From: Archaeoglobaceae archaeon
GTDB lineage: Archaea > Halobacteriota > Archaeoglobi > Archaeoglobales > Archaeoglobaceae
Length of the DNA: 29,010 nt
Assembly (NCBI GenBank): GCA_038893835.1
Contig: JAWAQR010000016.1
Coordinates: forward strand, 1-29,010
Reading direction: 5' to 3'
The translations under genes were made by a program, and so were the position numbers. How positions within the stretch are numbered: the first letter of the stretch is position 1; every line of letters begins with the position of its first letter. The notes under the pieces were generated by a model. It saw only the letters and a list, made by a program, of their open reading frames with translations. It was not told the origin of the DNA and did no database searches. Below, in pieces: positions 22,210 through 29,010 of the stretch.

Positions 22210-23622
22210 TTATTTCTTTGGAGGCCAGTTCTTCTCCATCCATCCCTTGATTCTTCCCGAATCTATCGGACCAACTAGGACTTTCCAGCCAGTTTCATCT
22301 TCAATCGCTCCCTGAAGCCTTGCTGCAAGTCCGGGAATGATTAGATATCGATGATTTACTTTCTCAGCTATCTTCGTTTCATTTATCAATTCTTTCACTT
22401 TGCTTGCCGTGAACTTTCCACCTGCAACGCTAGCTTCAACGCATATTCCATCCGTGTTCAGAACGAGAAGCCAACCTCTTATCTTAGCGCTGTTCAAGTC
22501 GTTTTCGACTGTGTAATAAGTTAGGGCAAAGTTTGTGGTTATGAAGACTGGGTCCTCTGGAGTGGGATTGTTTATCTCTCTCAGCCCTGGAGAAACTTGC
22601 ACTGGAGTTCGGGGATCTGTGTAAATGTTGAATCGGAGCGTTAATGTTGGCATCACAACGTGCTGATCTAGGCTGTGAAAGATCATGGCATCTGCGTATT
22701 TTACGATGAAGATGCTAGCTATAACTGCCTCCCAGTAAGATTTCGTGACCTCATCTCCTTCTATCATCCAAGCTGCTATTGGTGTTACCATTATTGGATA
22801 GGCTACATCCTTATCTCCATCCAGTATGGCCTTTCTCCTCAGCTGGATCACTCTCTCAAATGTTTTCTGCAAACCCTCTCCCATTGGCTCGGTAACCGGG
22901 TCTAGGACTATATCCTTAACTCCTGCAGATTTAAAGGTAACAGCAAGACTCTTAAGGAGATTCAGATCCTTTGCCCTTAAAACAACTGGAACTTTATAAT
23001 CCAAGGCGAGTTTTAGGAAATCTCTCCAATTCTCCTCAGTTGCAGCATATATCAATGGCCTTTGCTCTGCGGAAACTTCGAGTGCTGCTTTCATGCATTC
23101 CGGATTCAGAGCTACTAAGACCATTGGTTTTCCATAGCCAGCAACTTTCTTTACAACTTCTGCAAACCTCTTTGGATCGTTTGAAGTGCAACGGATTGCA
23201 AATCCATCCAGAGTCAGATATTTACCGACGTAGAACTTTCTATAGCTCACAACTCTATCGCAGCGTTCATCTATCTTCTTATCATCAAGAGAATCCCAGA
23301 TGTCGTAAAAGAAGGCTGTTGGATTGAAGAACGTGAGCTCATGACGGTGTAGAACTTCCTTACCACCTATCTTTATCGCGGAATCCCCAACCCCTATAAC
23401 AACTTCAGCTATCTCAGGAGCTGTAAGTTCTAGCAGTTTTTCAAGCCTCTCTTTCACCTTTGGATCCTTTTCAGCATCCCTTACGAGTGGTTTACAGTCT
23501 AGAATTTTGGCTGATCGATCCAAAACGTGTGAAGCAAAGCTCATGCATGTTTCGTAACCGCATTCTTTGCAGTTCGTTCTGGGGAGCAAGTTGTAAATCT
23601 CGAGCGGACTCTTTACTTTCAT
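22210..23622 (-). CDS. cdhE: ACDS complex gamma subunit (corrinoid Fe-S protein large subunit)
   Basis: LPRTNCKECGYETCMSFA Fe-S motif, IGG.EVLHRHE, NIYTDPR.P, TTNFALTYY.V, IIPGLAA. Start moved to ATG 23622 after a GGAGGTG RBS. Confidence 0.95.
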   Translation of the reverse strand: MKVKSPLEIYNLLPRTNCKECGYETCMSFASHVLDRSAKILDCKPLVRDAEKDPKVKERLEKLLELTAPEIAEVVIGVGDSAIKIGGKEVLHRHELTFFNPTAFFYDIWDSLDDKKIDERCDRVVSYRKFYVGKYLTLDGFAIRCTSNDPKRFAEVVKKVAGYGKPMVLVALNPECMKAALEVSAEQRPLIYAATEENWRDFLKLALDYKVPVVLRAKDLNLLKSLAVTFKSAGVKDIVLDPVTEPMGEGLQKTFERVIQLRRKAILDGDKDVAYPIMVTPIAAWMIEGDEVTKSYWEAVIASIFIVKYADAMIFHSLDQHVVMPTLTLRFNIYTDPRTPVQVSPGLREINNPTPEDPVFITTNFALTYYTVENDLNSAKIRGWLLVLNTDGICVEASVAGGKFTASKVKELINETKIAEKVNHRYLIIPGLAARLQGAIEDETGWKVLVGPIDSGRIKGWMEKNWPPKK

Positions 23623-23624
23623 TC

Positions 23625-24983
23625 TCACACCTCCGCAAAAATCCACTTGTTCTCGTCAGCAACTTTACCCTTAACTTTACCTCCAAGTGTGTTGAAGACT
23701 TCCTTGAGCACCGCAACTGCCAATGGGTGCATCATCATGAAAAGATCAACTCCAGCGAGCGAGAGAGTGAGACCTGTAACTATTTCCCATATGGGTCCAC
23801 GAAGCTCTCTTGGACCCCAAGGTGTATCTCCTTCCAACGGCGATTCCGCCATCCAAGCTTCTCTTGCTCCCCATGCATTTGTAGTTCCGCTGGAAATCGG
23901 GAAATTAAGTTCGTCGTCTCCTTTCAGAGCACTTATCCTTATTCTTTCCATGTTAGTAAAAGCATAGTCCAGTCCATAACCAAGAGCAGCAGTAGTTGGA
24001 TCCATGACAATACTATTTCTTGGCATGTTTGCTCTCCTTAGCAGATATCTGTTTAACATTTTCTGACTGTTTATATCCAACTGAGTCCAGCTAAGCACAA
24101 CGTGTCCATACTTCTTCGCAGCCTCACATATTCTCTGCCAGTCCGTATCAAGCGTCGCACTTGCAAGCATAACTCTTTCTCCTTCTGCTACTTCTGCAGC
24201 TTTTTCAAGCACTTCTGGATCCTTTTCTTTATTACCGCTACCTCCAACAATTATCGGACATTTCACAGCCTGTAAAACTTCTTCAACAACTTTTGCTGCC
24301 TCTCTTGCAGGAGTATTTTCCAGCAGCGGATCTGTACTGATCAGATGGATCGTCACCATGTCGGCGTTGAACTTCTTTACACATTTCTTTGCCCACTCAG
24401 CCGGGCTACCTATCACATCTTCGTAATGAACTCTAACAGCTTTGGCCAATGCTGGTGGACGATCAAAGACATCGATTGCAATTGCTGGAAGATGAGGCTG
24501 AGATTTATCGAATATGTAAAACGGAAGACTTTTTTCTCCTCCAAGCTTTATAACATAATCTCTACTTCCCCCATCGGCCTTTGTGGCACCTAAGACAACT
24601 TCTTCTATATATCCAGTATACTCGACCTTGGGCGGCTCAAACTTCGCCTCTATCAGCTTTTCCGGTATTTTAACTTCAGGTATTTTCACTTCCGGAGGTG
24701 CTTTCACTTCTGGTACAGCGGGAATTTGTACTGGGGAAATTGGAAGTTGAATTCCAAGCATCGTCGATAGCCTTTGTAAATACGTTAACGCCATGTTTGC
24801 ATGATAGAGAAAGTTTGCAAACTCATTCAACAAACTTTGAATGGCTGCAAAGGCTGTTAGATTCACTGCAGATCCCTCAAGCTCTATTTCGAGGTCTCCA
24901 TCAATTCTTACATCTTCAATTACCTCTACATCATATTTCTTAAGCAGAGCTAAAAAATCCTCAAAAGTGAACCTCTTTGCCAA
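23625..24983 (-). CDS. cdhD: ACDS complex delta subunit (corrinoid Fe-S protein small subunit)
   Basis: LGATKADGG.R, HLISTDP, GGSGNKEKDPEVL, MDPTTAALGYGLDY, NAWGAREAW, MMMHP; TTG start with a GGTGA RBS. Confidence 0.95.
   Translation of the reverse strand: MAKRFTFEDFLALLKKYDVEVIEDVRIDGDLEIELEGSAVNLTAFAAIQSLLNEFANFLYHANMALTYLQRLSTMLGIQLPISPVQIPAVPEVKAPPEVKIPEVKIPEKLIEAKFEPPKVEYTGYIEEVVLGATKADGGSRDYVIKLGGEKSLPFYIFDKSQPHLPAIAIDVFDRPPALAKAVRVHYEDVIGSPAEWAKKCVKKFNADMVTIHLISTDPLLENTPAREAAKVVEEVLQAVKCPIIVGGSGNKEKDPEVLEKAAEVAEGERVMLASATLDTDWQRICEAAKKYGHVVLSWTQLDINSQKMLNRYLLRRANMPRNSIVMDPTTAALGYGLDYAFTNMERIRISALKGDDELNFPISSGTTNAWGAREAWMAESPLEGDTPWGPRELRGPIWEIVTGLTLSLAGVDLFMMMHPLAVAVLKEVFNTLGGKVKGKVADENKWIFAEV
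24658..24714 (-). repeat. Imperfect PEVK(A/I) coding repeat in the CdhD linker
   Basis: Encodes PEVKAP-PEVKI-PEVKI-PEK; TTT(C/A)ACTTC recurs at 15-18 nt spacing on the plus strand. Confidence 0.7.
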
Positions 24984-24987
24984 AATC

Positions 24988-25740
24988 TCACCCCTTCAAA
25001 AACAATTCCGCAACCTTTTTCATTCTCCTATAAACTTCCGAACTCTCATCAAGATTCACTATGGGTAATCCCCTCAAATCCAGCTCAACAACTTTTTCAT
25101 CGTAAGGTAAAACTTCCAGCAGTCTTATTTTTTCCTTCTCTGCAAACTCTTTAATCCTTTTTTCAGCCTCTACATTTGATATTCTGTTCGCAATTAGAAA
25201 TATATCCCTGAAATTCAGCTTAAGCTCTTTAACTAGCTCTTTTATCCTGCTTGCAGTCGAAAGACCCTTTTTTGACATGTCCGTAACGATCAAAACGTAA
25301 TCTGCGCTCTCTATCGTTTTCCTGCTGAAGTGCTCAAGTCCAGCTTCGCTGTCAATTATCACGTATTCGTAATGCTTGGTCAACTTCCTCAAAATTCCAC
25401 GTAGCAAAGAGTTTGCAAAACAGTAACAACCTTCTCCTTCCGGTCTGCCCATTACAAGTAGATCGAAACCGTTGCATTCGCAGATCGTTTCGTATATTTT
25501 CCCTTCCAGCCACTGCTCTTTGTTCAGAGTTCCCATTTCATCTCTGCTCACTTGGAAAATCTCTCTTATATCTCCAAGTGTTCTCTCCACTGTAACTCCC
25601 AGGGCATCGCTTAAATTGCTGTCCGGATCAGCATCAACTGCTAGAACTTTTCTAGACCTCTTAGAAATAAAATGAATTAATAAAGCTGAAACTAGGGTTT
25701 TTCCAGTTCCACCTTTTCCAGTTACCGCTATTGCTGTCAT
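24988..25740 (-). CDS. cooC: CO dehydrogenase/ACS nickel-insertion ATPase (CooC/AcsF)
   Basis: GKGGTGKT deviant Walker A, VDADPDSNL, GRPEGEGCYC (CxC nickel site), DSEAGLEHFSR. Confidence 0.93.
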   Translation of the reverse strand: MTAIAVTGKGGTGKTLVSALLIHFISKRSRKVLAVDADPDSNLSDALGVTVERTLGDIREIFQVSRDEMGTLNKEQWLEGKIYETICECNGFDLLVMGRPEGEGCYCFANSLLRGILRKLTKHYEYVIIDSEAGLEHFSRKTIESADYVLIVTDMSKKGLSTASRIKELVKELKLNFRDIFLIANRISNVEAEKRIKEFAEKEKIRLLEVLPYDEKVVELDLRGLPIVNLDESSEVYRRMKKVAELFLKG

Positions 25741-25826
25741 TCTTCTTCCTCAATTATGAGCTCCGGTATCCTTATCTCTGCTCCAACGAGGATTAACTTA
25801 ACCTTTTTAACTTCCTTTTCCATCAT
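25737..25826 (-). CDS. Putative 29-aa microprotein MMEKEVKKVKLILVGAEIRIPELIIEEEE (not in the ORF track)
   Basis: Fills the cdhC-cooC gap exactly. Its ATG overlaps the cdhC TGA and its TGA overlaps the cooC ATG. GGGGGAG precedes it. It resembles the CdhC C-terminus. Confidence 0.75.
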   Translation of the reverse strand: MMEKEVKKVKLILVGAEIRIPELIIEEEE

Positions 25827-27379
25827 TTCTCCCCCTTCTTCTTTAGCACTATCTTTCCAATAGTAATCTTTGCATCTTTGATAATAAGTTTTATGCCTGC
25901 TGGAGTTACTTGTTGTGTTGGCAATTGTAGGGCAGGTAGCATTGGTTGAATTTGCATAACCTGTGGTGCAACCTGAACCTGCGTCACTGGCGCAGCTGGT
26001 GCTGCTGGCACTTCGGGAACTTTCTCAGGTTTAACTTCGACCTTCTCTTCCTTAACACCGACAACTTCTGGCCATCCATTTGTTATCTTCTTTCCATCCA
26101 CCTTCCTCACAACTCCTCTGACAACTGGATGATCCACTTTCTTAAGGAACTCCTTGAGCTCCTCGATTGTCTTTGCATTCTCTTCAGTCGCTATTTTATC
26201 TCTCACGTCTTCGGGAATATACTTTGCAACTCTCTCTTTTAATTCCTTGGGCATCCAGACTACTCTATACCATCCTCCATCTGCCTGAAGGAACTTCTTG
26301 CTTCTGAAATACGCGATTCCAATTCCCAGAAATCCTAGAACTTGTTTACCGCCACCAGTCTGCCCTGCCATCGATGAGAAGCTTAGACCATTTGGCGCTA
26401 AGTGTGGATAACCTCTGTGAACAAAACCTATTCCATCAACTTCTGGCATGTAAAAGCCAATCACTTCGAAACATCCGCAGCTTGTGTGTGGATACTCAAA
26501 GAAGCTATGTAATTTTATCCTTTCAACTTCTCCACCGCTTTCCTGCTTTGCAAACTCATTAACTCCAGAGTATTCACCTCCAATTGGATCTATCACTTCT
26601 CCTTTTGGCACAGCTCTGTTTGGTCCTTCAGGGTCAACTTTTGCAGCAGCTCTTCCATCAAACCAAGTTATCGCTCCGCAGAGAGAGGGGCGGTCTGGAG
26701 ATACAATGCATACATTCGTTGGAGCAAAGCTCTGGCAGAGAGTGCATGAGTAAAACTCGTCCACGTCTTCATCGTGCAGAGTTTCAACTCTCCTATCCCT
26801 CTCCTCATATATGGGCATGGCGACTTCCTTCAAGATCTTTTCTACCAAGTTTCTATCTGTTATGTAAACAGCCTCTATTTTCTCGATGAATGGAAGTTCG
26901 TTCTTGTAGAGCATCATCGTCGCCTTTGCTATCTGTATCAGACTCTTCAGACCCTTCTTTACGCAATTTTTACCGATTCTAACCCATATGTCGTATCTCT
27001 GATTCAGGTGCATGTAACCCTCGATGTAGTTCTGGAAATCGTGGTTTCTCCTTTCTATAACCGGCTCGAGATCTGTTTCAACCATGCTTCCGGCAATGTA
27101 GTACAGCATGCCATATGGATAGCTTTCTCCCTCCTTCATTTCATCCAGATCTGGACCAACTAAAGTTACTTTCATGTCTTCAACTTGTTCTGCAGGTAAA
27201 GCCATGACCAATTCGAACTTTACTTGCTTTGGCCCTCCAAGTTCAACATACATGTCTTCTTTGCGAATTCTTTCCCCTTCATACATCGGAGAAATGTCAA
27301 ATGGGAATTTATCTTCTGGCCCAACGCTTACTTTAACCTTTGCACCAGCGGGAATTTCGATCTTCTTTCTTTCAACCAT
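25823..27379 (-). CDS. cdhC: ACDS complex beta subunit (acetyl-CoA synthase)
   Basis: FPFDISPMYEGERIRK, DLEPVIERR.H, HLNQR, CTLCQSFAP, SLCGAI, HTSCGCFE (A-cluster ligands), GGGKQ; GGTGGAG RBS. Confidence 0.97.
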   Translation of the reverse strand: MVERKKIEIPAGAKVKVSVGPEDKFPFDISPMYEGERIRKEDMYVELGGPKQVKFELVMALPAEQVEDMKVTLVGPDLDEMKEGESYPYGMLYYIAGSMVETDLEPVIERRNHDFQNYIEGYMHLNQRYDIWVRIGKNCVKKGLKSLIQIAKATMMLYKNELPFIEKIEAVYITDRNLVEKILKEVAMPIYEERDRRVETLHDEDVDEFYSCTLCQSFAPTNVCIVSPDRPSLCGAITWFDGRAAAKVDPEGPNRAVPKGEVIDPIGGEYSGVNEFAKQESGGEVERIKLHSFFEYPHTSCGCFEVIGFYMPEVDGIGFVHRGYPHLAPNGLSFSSMAGQTGGGKQVLGFLGIGIAYFRSKKFLQADGGWYRVVWMPKELKERVAKYIPEDVRDKIATEENAKTIEELKEFLKKVDHPVVRGVVRKVDGKKITNGWPEVVGVKEEKVEVKPEKVPEVPAAPAAPVTQVQVAPQVMQIQPMLPALQLPTQQVTPAGIKLIIKDAKITIGKIVLKKKGEK

Positions 27380-27643: not shown

Positions 27644-27826
27644 ATGGCCAAAGCTGCGAAAACAAAGGCGAGGACACCACCTTTAATGTCCTCCGCTGGG
27701 ATAATGAGATATTTTGAAGAGGAAAAGACAAAAGTAAGGATTAGTCCAAAGACAGTCTTAATAACTGGAATTTTGACTGGGTTCATCGTAATAATCTTCA
27801 ACGCCTTCTATGGTCTTTGGCCTTGA
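27644..27826 (+). CDS. secG: Preprotein translocase subunit Sec61beta
   Basis: 60 aa; basic N-terminus, LMSSAGIMRYFEEE..ISP motif and a single C-terminal TM helix. Confidence 0.92.
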   Translation: MAKAAKTKARTPPLMSSAGIMRYFEEEKTKVRISPKTVLITGILTGFIVIIFNAFYGLWP

Positions 27827-28458
27827 AGCGCTTTAACAATTGCTTTTTCCATAGCTTTTTTGTGAGCATTTCCAGCCTTATGTATTCCCCCTCCTGGCCC
27901 TCTTGAGGCGGTGCATGGAAATATTTGTGCGTAATAACCAGCCTTTTCCGGAGCCTCTTCAATTCTAATCCCTTTCAACTTTTCGGCGACAAAGTAACTT
28001 GCCCCGCAAAAAGCGGATCTTAATACTTTCACGTTCTTTATAACTCCATTTTCTATTTCAACTTCAAATTCTGGGGTTCCAAAGTATTTAAAGAATTCAT
28101 GGTCTCCAAGCTTTGGAGTTGTGCAGCAAATCTCTTCCCATACAACTTTAATCCCAAATCTTTCTCCTAGGGATTTCAGTTGCTTGTAAGACCCGGCTTT
28201 GGATCCGCCAGAGATTATCACGATTTTCCCACCTTTTTTTGAAACCTGTTCTATCAGTTCAATGTTTATATCTGGATGGTTTGCAAAGGAAACAACGAGT
28301 TCCGGAACCTTCTGTGGCAACTTCAAAAATTCCGATGGGTTCTCGATGACTTCAGGTAAGTCTTCCGGTAAATAATAGCATTCCACATCAAAGTATCTTG
28401 AAAAAAGCTCCAATTCTCTTTTTCTTTGCCCTTTTCTAAGTAAGACTCCTATTTTCAT
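27808..28458 (-). CDS. DUF166 family protein
   Basis: LPEVIENP, HPDI, EICC, FG.PEFEV, V.VLRSAFCGAS.FVA, PCTASRG and IHKAG..H pattern; ATGA overlap with the upstream CooC-like gene. Confidence 0.75.
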   Translation of the reverse strand: MKIGVLLRKGQRKRELELFSRYFDVECYYLPEDLPEVIENPSEFLKLPQKVPELVVSFANHPDINIELIEQVSKKGGKIVIISGGSKAGSYKQLKSLGERFGIKVVWEEICCTTPKLGDHEFFKYFGTPEFEVEIENGVIKNVKVLRSAFCGASYFVAEKLKGIRIEEAPEKAGYYAQIFPCTASRGPGGGIHKAGNAHKKAMEKAIVKALQGQRP

Positions 28459-29010
28459 CTCAAGATCTCCTCAATTGCCCTCTTTATCTTTAAAAATGGC
28501 TCTAGATCGCAGAGCTTGTATGGAGGAATGTTCTCTATGTCCGCCTTAATAAAGCATTCGCTGTACGGAATCACTCCGAGAATTGGATATCTTATCCTCG
28601 CAAGCAATCGCTTAGACAATTCGTTATCAACGAATTTGTTAACGACGACAGCAAGTTTTTCTATCCCTATATCTTCAGCCAATTTTTTTATCCTTTCCAA
28701 AGTCTCAATCGCCCTACTTCCAGGTTCAACAACTGCGATCAGCAGGTCCACTCCTCTAGCAGTCCCCCTGCCGAGATGCTCAATACCGGCTTCCATGTCG
28801 AGAATGAGGATATCCTTTTCCCTGAAAATTGCATGTCTTAGAATTGCTCTAAGAAATGCATTTTCAGGACAAAAACATCCCTCTCCACCCTTTTCTATCG
28901 TTCCAAGAACCAATACTCTTACACCATCCTCATTATAAACAGAATAAGTCTCAAATATATCGTCAACTTTTGGATTTAGCCTGTAAGTTCCTAAAGGCAT
29001 TAAAACGCGC
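28455..29010 (-). CDS. Second CooC-family ATPase, 5' part outside the window
   Basis: LNPKVDD, GGEGCFCPENA (CxC), DMEAGIEHLGRGT, VVEP, VVNK; the frame stays open to the window edge and Walker A is not included. Confidence 0.9.
   Translation of the reverse strand, partial: RVLMPLGTYRLNPKVDDIFETYSVYNEDGVRVLVLGTIEKGGEGCFCPENAFLRAILRHAIFREKDILILDMEAGIEHLGRGTARGVDLLIAVVEPGSRAIETLERIKKLAEDIGIEKLAVVVNKFVDNELSKRLLARIRYPILGVIPYSECFIKADIENIPPYKLCDLEPFLKIKRAIEEILR

Follow-up and report, generated by a model that had tools for sequence, protein, structure and literature searches.

A Candidate Microprotein Gene Related to the CdhC C-Terminal Motif in Acetyl-CoA Decarbonylase/Synthase Operons of Archaeoglobaceae

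What, if anything, is encoded in the short gap between cdhC and cooC in the operon that encodes acetyl-CoA decarbonylase/synthase (ACDS) in an Archaeoglobaceae archaeon? In many archaea ACDS, an assembly of ~2 MDa, has the central part in fixing carbon and splitting acetate. In the stretch of DNA analyzed here, 29,010 nucleotides of contig JAWAQR010000016.1 (assembly GCA_038893835.1) and hereafter the window, the whole 82-nt gap between the gene for the acetyl-CoA synthase (ACS) subunit CdhC and that for the ATPase CooC is spanned by a short open reading frame (sORF) with the translation MMEKEVKKVKLILVGAEIRIPELIIEEEE. A preliminary description of the window had proposed that this frame encodes a free copy of the motif with which CdhC ends. 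The analyses below address whether the frame is coding, whether it is related to CdhC, and what a peptide of this kind might do.

The part of CdhC concerned has attracted attention before. Its C-terminal extension of ~75 aa was left unresolved by Biester et al. (2024, PMC11474084), who describe its function as unknown. According to a 2026 preprint (PMC13370988), the ACDS of Methanosarcina acetivorans is organized about a coiled coil at the N-terminus of CdhD, and conserved termini of CdhA (1–43) and CdhC (401–470) are proposed to tether CO dehydrogenase (CODH) and ACS to this hub. The preprint also reports one crosslink, between CdhA E15 and CdhC K452, and one passage refers to the CdhC element as a "disordered helix."

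Coding Status and Distribution of the Short Reading Frame

The frame had been described as filling the gap exactly, with ATGA overlaps at both ends and a purine-rich ribosome-binding site, and this description is accurate (Table 1). Its first ATG forms an ATGA overlap with the cdhC stop codon, its TGA (25739–25737) forms another with the cooC ATG, and the Shine-Dalgarno (SD)-like site ahead of it reads GGGGGAG. The proposed length of 29 aa requires adjustment: the frame is indeed open from the first ATG, but of 20 close relatives only 3 have this codon, whereas all 20 keep the second ATG (25823–25821, with one base common to the cdhC stop). The conserved start is thus probably the second ATG and the conserved product a peptide of 28 aa.

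The signals around the frame recur in its orthologues. Among 47 distinct orthologues, 36 have an SD-like motif ahead of the sORF and 39 have one ahead of cooC. Where the cooC start could be placed (45 orthologues), the sORF stop lies no more than ~4 nt from it, or overlaps it, in 36, and the overlap takes the form ATGA in 22. Within the codons of the acidic end of the peptide (GAGGAAGAAGAA) stands GAGGA, suitably spaced from the cooC ATG, and the acidic end may therefore be shaped in part by the ribosome-binding site of cooC. For the Lys-to-Glu changes inside the peptide (GAE, PEL) that site offers no explanation. Peptides of one genus, g33, have basic rather than acidic ends.

An open frame of 29 codons is not significant by itself, and it is conservation that sets the sORF apart from chance. 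A sample of 41 related genomes yielded 30 cdhC loci, 26 of them also with cooC. At 20 of these 26 the sORF is present in frame at the same position and ends on the cooC start; at 5 the cdhC–cooC gap (0–19 nt) leaves no room for it, and the remaining one (L028) holds a separate ORF for a CdhC tail, considered below. In the codon alignment of the close sORFs, Leu, Ile, Gly, Ala, and Pro codons vary freely while the residues are unchanged. Pooled over all pairs, the ratio of nonsynonymous to synonymous differences per site (pN/pS) is 0.19, or 0.15 in the core, with pS at ~0.8. In the two shifted frames the ratio is 1.16 and 2.49, and 77 and 41 stop codons appear.

For a comparison with the flanking genes, 46 of the 47 distinct sORF sequences were usable and were arranged greedily by cooC distance into 23 nonoverlapping pairs; the resulting values of dN/dS derive from pairs without common members rather than from a formal tree-based test. 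The sORF core has a pS of 0.61, a pN of 0.093, and a Jukes–Cantor-corrected (JC) dN/dS of 0.078. For the first 50 codons of cooC the corresponding dN/dS(JC) is 0.068 and for the CdhC tail motif (17 codons) 0.063, so that the peptide is about as constrained as its well-known neighbors. The conserved frame with synonymous-biased change that the preliminary description had suggested looking for in relatives is thus found, and the sORF is almost certainly coding and under selection, as judged from these comparisons of sequences.

The family has so far gone without a name. The sORF has no Pfam or NCBIfam model, four sORFs searched against NCBIfam at E ≤ 1 matched 0 families, TIGR00316 included, and a literature search found no paper describing it. 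Exact orthologue sequences nevertheless occur for 7 of 10 queries in public predicted-protein collections (JGI/IMG, Logan, NCBI, and others), none of them named. The expectation that gene callers would miss the frame is therefore only partly correct, as they sometimes predict it.

Of 96 genomes sampled in the class, 50 gave a match to a profile built from the 20 close sORFs, and 48 of these reached E ≤ 5.3e-7. The two weak matches fall within the end of cdhC (G105) and just downstream of cdhC (G097). For orientation, 84 of the 96 genomes have cdhC. Reading of the cdhC–cooC junctions in 31 genomes lacking a strong match added divergent sORFs in all eight genomes of genus g32 (e.g., MKEDKQDSGKFKIILKGAKIYIEKVKFEEE) and in five of seven of genus g33 (e.g., MKIELKGAKIYVEKIVFKKKKR), where one ORF has no ATG. 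The total comes to 61 carriers among the 96 genomes, in 11 of 21 genera, all of one family (f1); in this sample, neither of the other two families of the class yielded the sORF, and within the surveyed loci it is absent from genera g4 (5 loci), g23 (3), g29 (5), g27 (1), and g22 (2). At least three carriers have titled records, metagenome-assembled genomes under the names Archaeoglobaceae archaeon, Archaeoglobus sp., and Archaeoglobi archaeon WYZ-LMO2, and several complete genomes in the sample also carry the sORF (e.g., G041, G073, G076–G078). Across the sORF family, whose members are 27–43 aa long, the 47 distinct sequences align without gaps over the core hK(I/L)x(L/F)x(G/D/N)(A/S)xIx(I/V).

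The possibility that the sORF tracks a particular CdhA paralogue was considered and rejected, since a CdhA type of at least 75% identity occurs without the sORF (g4) and a type of ~55% occurs alone with it (g2, g28). Many genomes of genus g1 carry two CdhA paralogues, ~90% and ~56% identical to the CdhA of the window organism, whose own genome has one full-length copy only; the presence of the sORF follows neither type.

Relation to the CdhC C-Terminal Tail

The gapless alignment of the peptide with the CdhC tail, on which the preliminary description had relied, proved to be real. An ungapped BLOSUM62 scan of the organism's own genome gave the CdhC tail a score of 34, attained by just 4 of 471,065 windows from open frames of at least 100 aa. 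Profile–profile comparison with hhalign gave P = 3.8e-6 for the close sORFs against 25 CdhC tails, and, for 47 sORFs against 62 distinct tails, a probability of 96.2%, P = 2.4e-9, and a score of 42.4. Two hundred column-shuffled controls scored 8.4 on average (sd 2.3) and 17.5 at most. On this basis the sORF is very probably homologous to the CdhC tail, in agreement with the earlier proposal that the peptide is a copy of the motif.

Searches beyond the class lead to the same part of CdhC. The broad sORF profile found matches in 191 of 401 genomes of a phylum sample. Outside family f1, almost all of the matches listed stand at the ends of open frames of 447–553 aa; a hand count placed ~95 of the 150 matches listed at the ends of 447–569-aa frames, and seven profile matches coincide with independently located cdhC 3′ ends. 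For the window organism, the last 60 aa of CdhC match TIGR00316 positions 427–460 at 5.6e-5.

Compared with the CdhC extension, the sORF matches the last ~20 residues free of gaps, with hKhhhK[DN]AKIxIxKhhh in CdhC against hKhhLxGAxIxIxxhhh in the peptide. It differs in being a separate ORF with its own ATG and SD-like site: the peptide is free-standing, is joined to neither of the catalytic A2/A3 domains of ACS, and has no Pro/Gln-rich linker. In the genus of the window organism, several Lys residues of the tail are Glu in the sORF. The sORFs of g32 and g33 are nearest to the CdhC tails, as seen when g32 FKIILKGAKIYIEKV is set beside the CdhC tail IRLIIKNAKIYIDKV of the same genomes. A Gly is found in 42 of the 47 sORFs at a position where every aligned CdhC tail has Asp or Asn, and from this common Gly we infer a single old duplication followed by divergence and losses.

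That the motif can exist as a separate polypeptide is indicated by seven loci that belong to other families within the phylum: L160 (G033), L161 (G128), L162 (G118), L164 (G108), L165 (G155), L166 (G190), and L028 (G034). At these loci cdhC ends at about residue 437 of the window protein, without a tail of its own, and a small ORF before cooC (~45–80 aa, in open frames of 55–113 aa) begins with a Lys-rich segment of the KKPLKLKIKKK type, continues with a Pro/Ala-rich linker, and contains the tail motif. As read from the sequences, these split-tail loci are natural gene fissions of CdhC. They resemble the Archaeoglobaceae arrangement in having a small ORF between cdhC and cooC that ends in the same motif (e.g., ...GGIKLVLKNAKIHIDQVIIRKK) and differ from it in that the Archaeoglobaceae CdhC keeps its tail, the sORF being an extra and shorter copy. 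Since the motif occurs naturally as a polypeptide of its own, a trans-acting copy in Archaeoglobaceae is plausible. In two further loci, L163 (G118, second contig) and L167 (G279), a contig end truncates the frame that carries the motif, and these loci are uninformative with respect to fission. CdhC has an additional segment ahead of the tail motif at L130 (G058:C1:121176–123000; ...LSAEELKNVLNGLVDEGYLEREF...) and at L028 (...LSEKQFMQVVDKLVEEGYIEM); in L130 a Glu/Lys-rich linker follows it.

Structure prediction was applied to both families. AlphaFold2, given a 47-row alignment, modeled a 31-aa orthologue with a mean pLDDT of 83.7 and ~90 over residues 11–30; for the last 60 aa of CdhC, pLDDT reached ~90 over the motif only. 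A Foldseek search of the sORF model against the PDB returned 0 matches. The hydrophobic moment peaks at 150–160 degrees in both the sORF and the CdhC-tail families (0.5 versus 0.27 for shuffled sequences); the CdhC tail has a second peak at 90–100 degrees, and the periodicity is thus beta-like but, for CdhC, ambiguous; the motif, put forward as a beta-strand in the preliminary description, may be a strand or a helix. Complex prediction with the last 60 aa of CdhC, the first 50 aa of CdhA, and the sORF gave an ipSAE of 0.03 in both runs, but the partner is shorter than the 30 residues for which the method is calibrated, and the value speaks neither for nor against an interaction.

The N-terminus of CdhA offers a second likeness. 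The CdhA of the window organism, encoded on another contig (C3:55708–58083, minus strand, L038), begins MVLELRKGTIFVDELRNISIRIGEVVEEEEEW, and the N-terminal motif xGxhxhDELxNVxIxIG[EK][IV]xEEEEEW is conserved in 30 loci (L038, L039–L067). The segment IxIRIGEVVEEEEE of the window organism's CdhA resembles the second half of the sORF, EIRIPELIIEEEE, with 53% identity over 17 columns, and hhalign of the broad alignments gave a score of 17.6 and P = 0.0024. The CdhA N-terminus as a closer relative of the sORF was nonetheless rejected as unproven, since 17.6 is no better than the best shuffle in the CdhC comparison; the likeness is taken as a marginal lead rather than as homology. The CdhA motif also resembles the CdhC tail, with ITIGKI in some paralogues.

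Possible Role at the ACDS Hub and Alternatives

How might a free copy of the tail motif act? The preferred scenario begins with the sORF arising as a copy of the CdhC C-terminal motif, with the core h-K-h-h-L-x-G-A-x-I-x-I-x-x-h-h-h. Sharing the short structural element of the CdhC tail, the free peptide would engage the partner of the tail; at the ACDS hub it could pair with CdhC tails or fill or cap their docking sites, and either way it would adjust the tethering of acetyl-CoA synthase. The preliminary description had suggested that it might tune ACDS oligomerization. Judged on the sequence data, the proposal as a whole, namely that the sORF is a microprotein gene of Archaeoglobaceae ACDS operons that copies the CdhC motif and acts at the hub, has about an even chance of being correct. 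We are similarly divided on the statement that the peptide would act through the interaction surface of the CdhC tail in ACDS. A more specific and rather unlikely extension would make the peptide a sixth component of the Archaeoglobaceae ACDS supercomplex that sets the number of tethered acetyl-CoA synthase modules. By pairing with the CdhC tail, or by taking its docking site on the CdhD/CdhA hub, the peptide would then provide an operon-encoded switch between scaffold-bound and free ACS and, taken with the split-tail lineages, would show the CdhC motif to be an autonomous, transferable docking module.

Several observations weigh against the preferred scenario. The profile of close relatives, run against the six-frame translation of the organism's own genome, gave only the self match below E = 2, and the link to CdhC emerged only with the broader alignment. 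Five cdhC-bearing genera of the same family have cdhC–cooC gaps of ~0–25 nt or overlapping genes and no sORF, and the peptide is therefore dispensable for ACDS as such. The preliminary description had set an acidic end of the peptide against the basic end of CdhC. The acidic end is present in the window, but its charge complementarity to the basic CdhC tail is weak evidence because the acidic codons are confounded with the cooC SD-like site and the end is basic in one genus. Finally, the tight coupling of the sORF to cooC fits a role related to cooC equally well.

This last point leads to the main alternative, which we consider improbable, but by no means negligible, and in which the peptide serves CooC instead of the assembled complex. 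ATPases of the cooC/acsF type insert nickel into ACS, and a mimic of the CdhC tail produced alongside CooC could act as an adaptor or regulator of nickel insertion into the A-cluster of acetyl-CoA synthase. It might, for example, pair with the CdhC tail and thereby bring in or free the maturation ATPase. The position of the sORF, always immediately upstream of cooC and with its last codons supplying the cooC SD-like site, speaks for such a role, as does the short or overlapping junction found in 36 of 45 orthologues. Where the sORF is absent, however, cooC follows cdhC just as closely, and the position may simply mark where the duplication landed; moreover, no CooC feature was seen to co-vary with sORF presence, although no systematic test of this was made. 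The same overlapping stop and start codons at both ends, and the SD-like site inside the frame, could instead reflect a translational-coupling spacer or leader that sets the ratio of cooC to cdhC translation and whose peptide has no function. Selection at the level of the peptide contradicts this explanation, which is accordingly very unlikely: residues are conserved while synonymous sites are near saturation, dN/dS (0.08) equals that of the neighbors, the core is kept gap-free in 47 distinct sequences from 11 genera, and a spacer would not keep a sequence like the CdhC tail.

Least probable of all, and hardly credible in our estimate, is that the sORF is what is left of a tandem duplication in decay, or else an extension of cdhC by frameshift or read-through, an artifact of assembly or annotation. 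Such an origin would suit two relatives, L016 (3058–3138) and L017 (1402–1482), where the sORF is in the cdhC frame and split from it only by a TAA directly followed by the ATG. Across species, however, the sORF ATG sits anywhere between 4 bases ahead of the point where the cdhC stop ends and 5 bases beyond it, and this varying frame relation also speaks against a fixed recoding mechanism; all orthologues but one have an ATG of their own. Purifying selection is strong, and the same arrangement recurs in dozens of independent assemblies. Fused or long forms were sought among 1.84 billion cluster representatives, a search in which only matches above ~35 bits can surface: none was found, and the six matches (E ≤ 1e-3) were all 27–36 aa long. 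An in-frame tail duplication in orthologous cdhC genes, which the preliminary description had named as refuting evidence, is likewise missing from these representatives. Selection, separate start signals, wide occurrence, and the lack of fused forms in the search together contradict a remnant or an artifact.

Two known kinds of small protein invite comparison. As summarized in PMC6003976, microProteins consist of one domain, are paralogous to larger proteins, and disturb the assembly of complexes. The sORF is similar in that it would encode a small protein of one interaction motif related to a larger multidomain protein of a higher-order complex; the difference is that microProteins are described in plants and animals, with a dominant-negative action shown experimentally, whereas interference by the sORF peptide would be hypothetical. 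MtrR of Methanosarcina mazei, as described in PMC13370731, is also encoded by an sORF and acts on a large complex of C1 metabolism, but it has no sequence relation to the peptide and belongs to a different complex and organism. The sORFs appear to form an unnamed gene family of free-standing paralogues of the C-terminal motif of CdhC, in concept much like microProteins, and are worth annotating in Archaeoglobaceae ACDS operons. More generally, a free copy of the tail motif under strong selection, together with the split-tail lineages, is an argument for regarding the motif as an autonomous interaction module, and a peptide of 28 aa would be a cheap reagent for probing the partners of the CdhC tail.

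Layout of the Locus and Further Observations

The features of the locus are collected in Table 1. The cdhC stop codon, TGA, occupies 25825–25823, and residues 421–518 of CdhC are covered by no Pfam domain.

Table 1. Features of the ACDS locus in the window
Feature	Position	Strand	Evidence or remark
cdhC (ACDS beta subunit, acetyl-CoA synthase; 518 aa)	27379..25823	minus	PF03598 8.6e-60, PF19436 6.2e-87 (Pfam CdhC + ACS_CODH_B_C)
CdhC C-terminal motif GIKLIIKDAKITIGKIVLKKKGEK, residues 495–518; probable parent or paralogue of the sORF core	25826..25897	minus	conservation and homology to the sORF family
SD-like AAGGGGGAG within the last cdhC codons, 2–10 nt upstream of the sORF start codons	25829..25837	minus	
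sORF, 29 aa from the first ATG	25826..25737	minus	sequence and start codons, purifying selection, distribution
GAGGA, SD-like site of cooC, made by Glu codons at the sORF end	25747..25751	minus	
cooC/acsF-type P-loop NTPase, CbiA/NifH-type (nickel-insertion accessory family)	25740..24988	minus	ATG 25740–25738; coupled in translation to the sORF by ATGA
cdhD (corrinoid Fe-S protein small subunit)	24983..23625	minus	
cdhE (corrinoid Fe-S protein large subunit)	23646..22210	minus	

At the start of the cdhD gene (window 24983–24700, minus strand), the predicted protein begins MAKRFTFEDFLALLKKYDVEVIEDVRIDGDLEIELEG and continues with a hydrophobic, heptad-like stretch (AFAAIQSLLNEFANFLYHANMALTYLQRLSTMLG). 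This stretch may correspond to the oligomerizing coiled coil of M. acetivorans CdhD reported in PMC13370988.

Contigs assembled from an RNA library were also inspected. The metatranscriptome run X7 contained 31% of the words, and its contigs, from a close relative, cover cooC (25018–25736) and cdhC (25816–27362). The pieces listed end at 25736 and begin again at 25816, where the sORF has its borders, and contigs of this kind cannot show transcription or translation. The gap at the sORF may be an assembly break at a spot of variable length, as relatives have versions of 27–31 aa.

Upstream of cdhC, the window contains at 27808–29000 (minus strand) a DUF166 gene and a second, shorter gene of the CbiA/ParA type. 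The product of the latter resembles the C-terminal half of CooC, with 27% identity.

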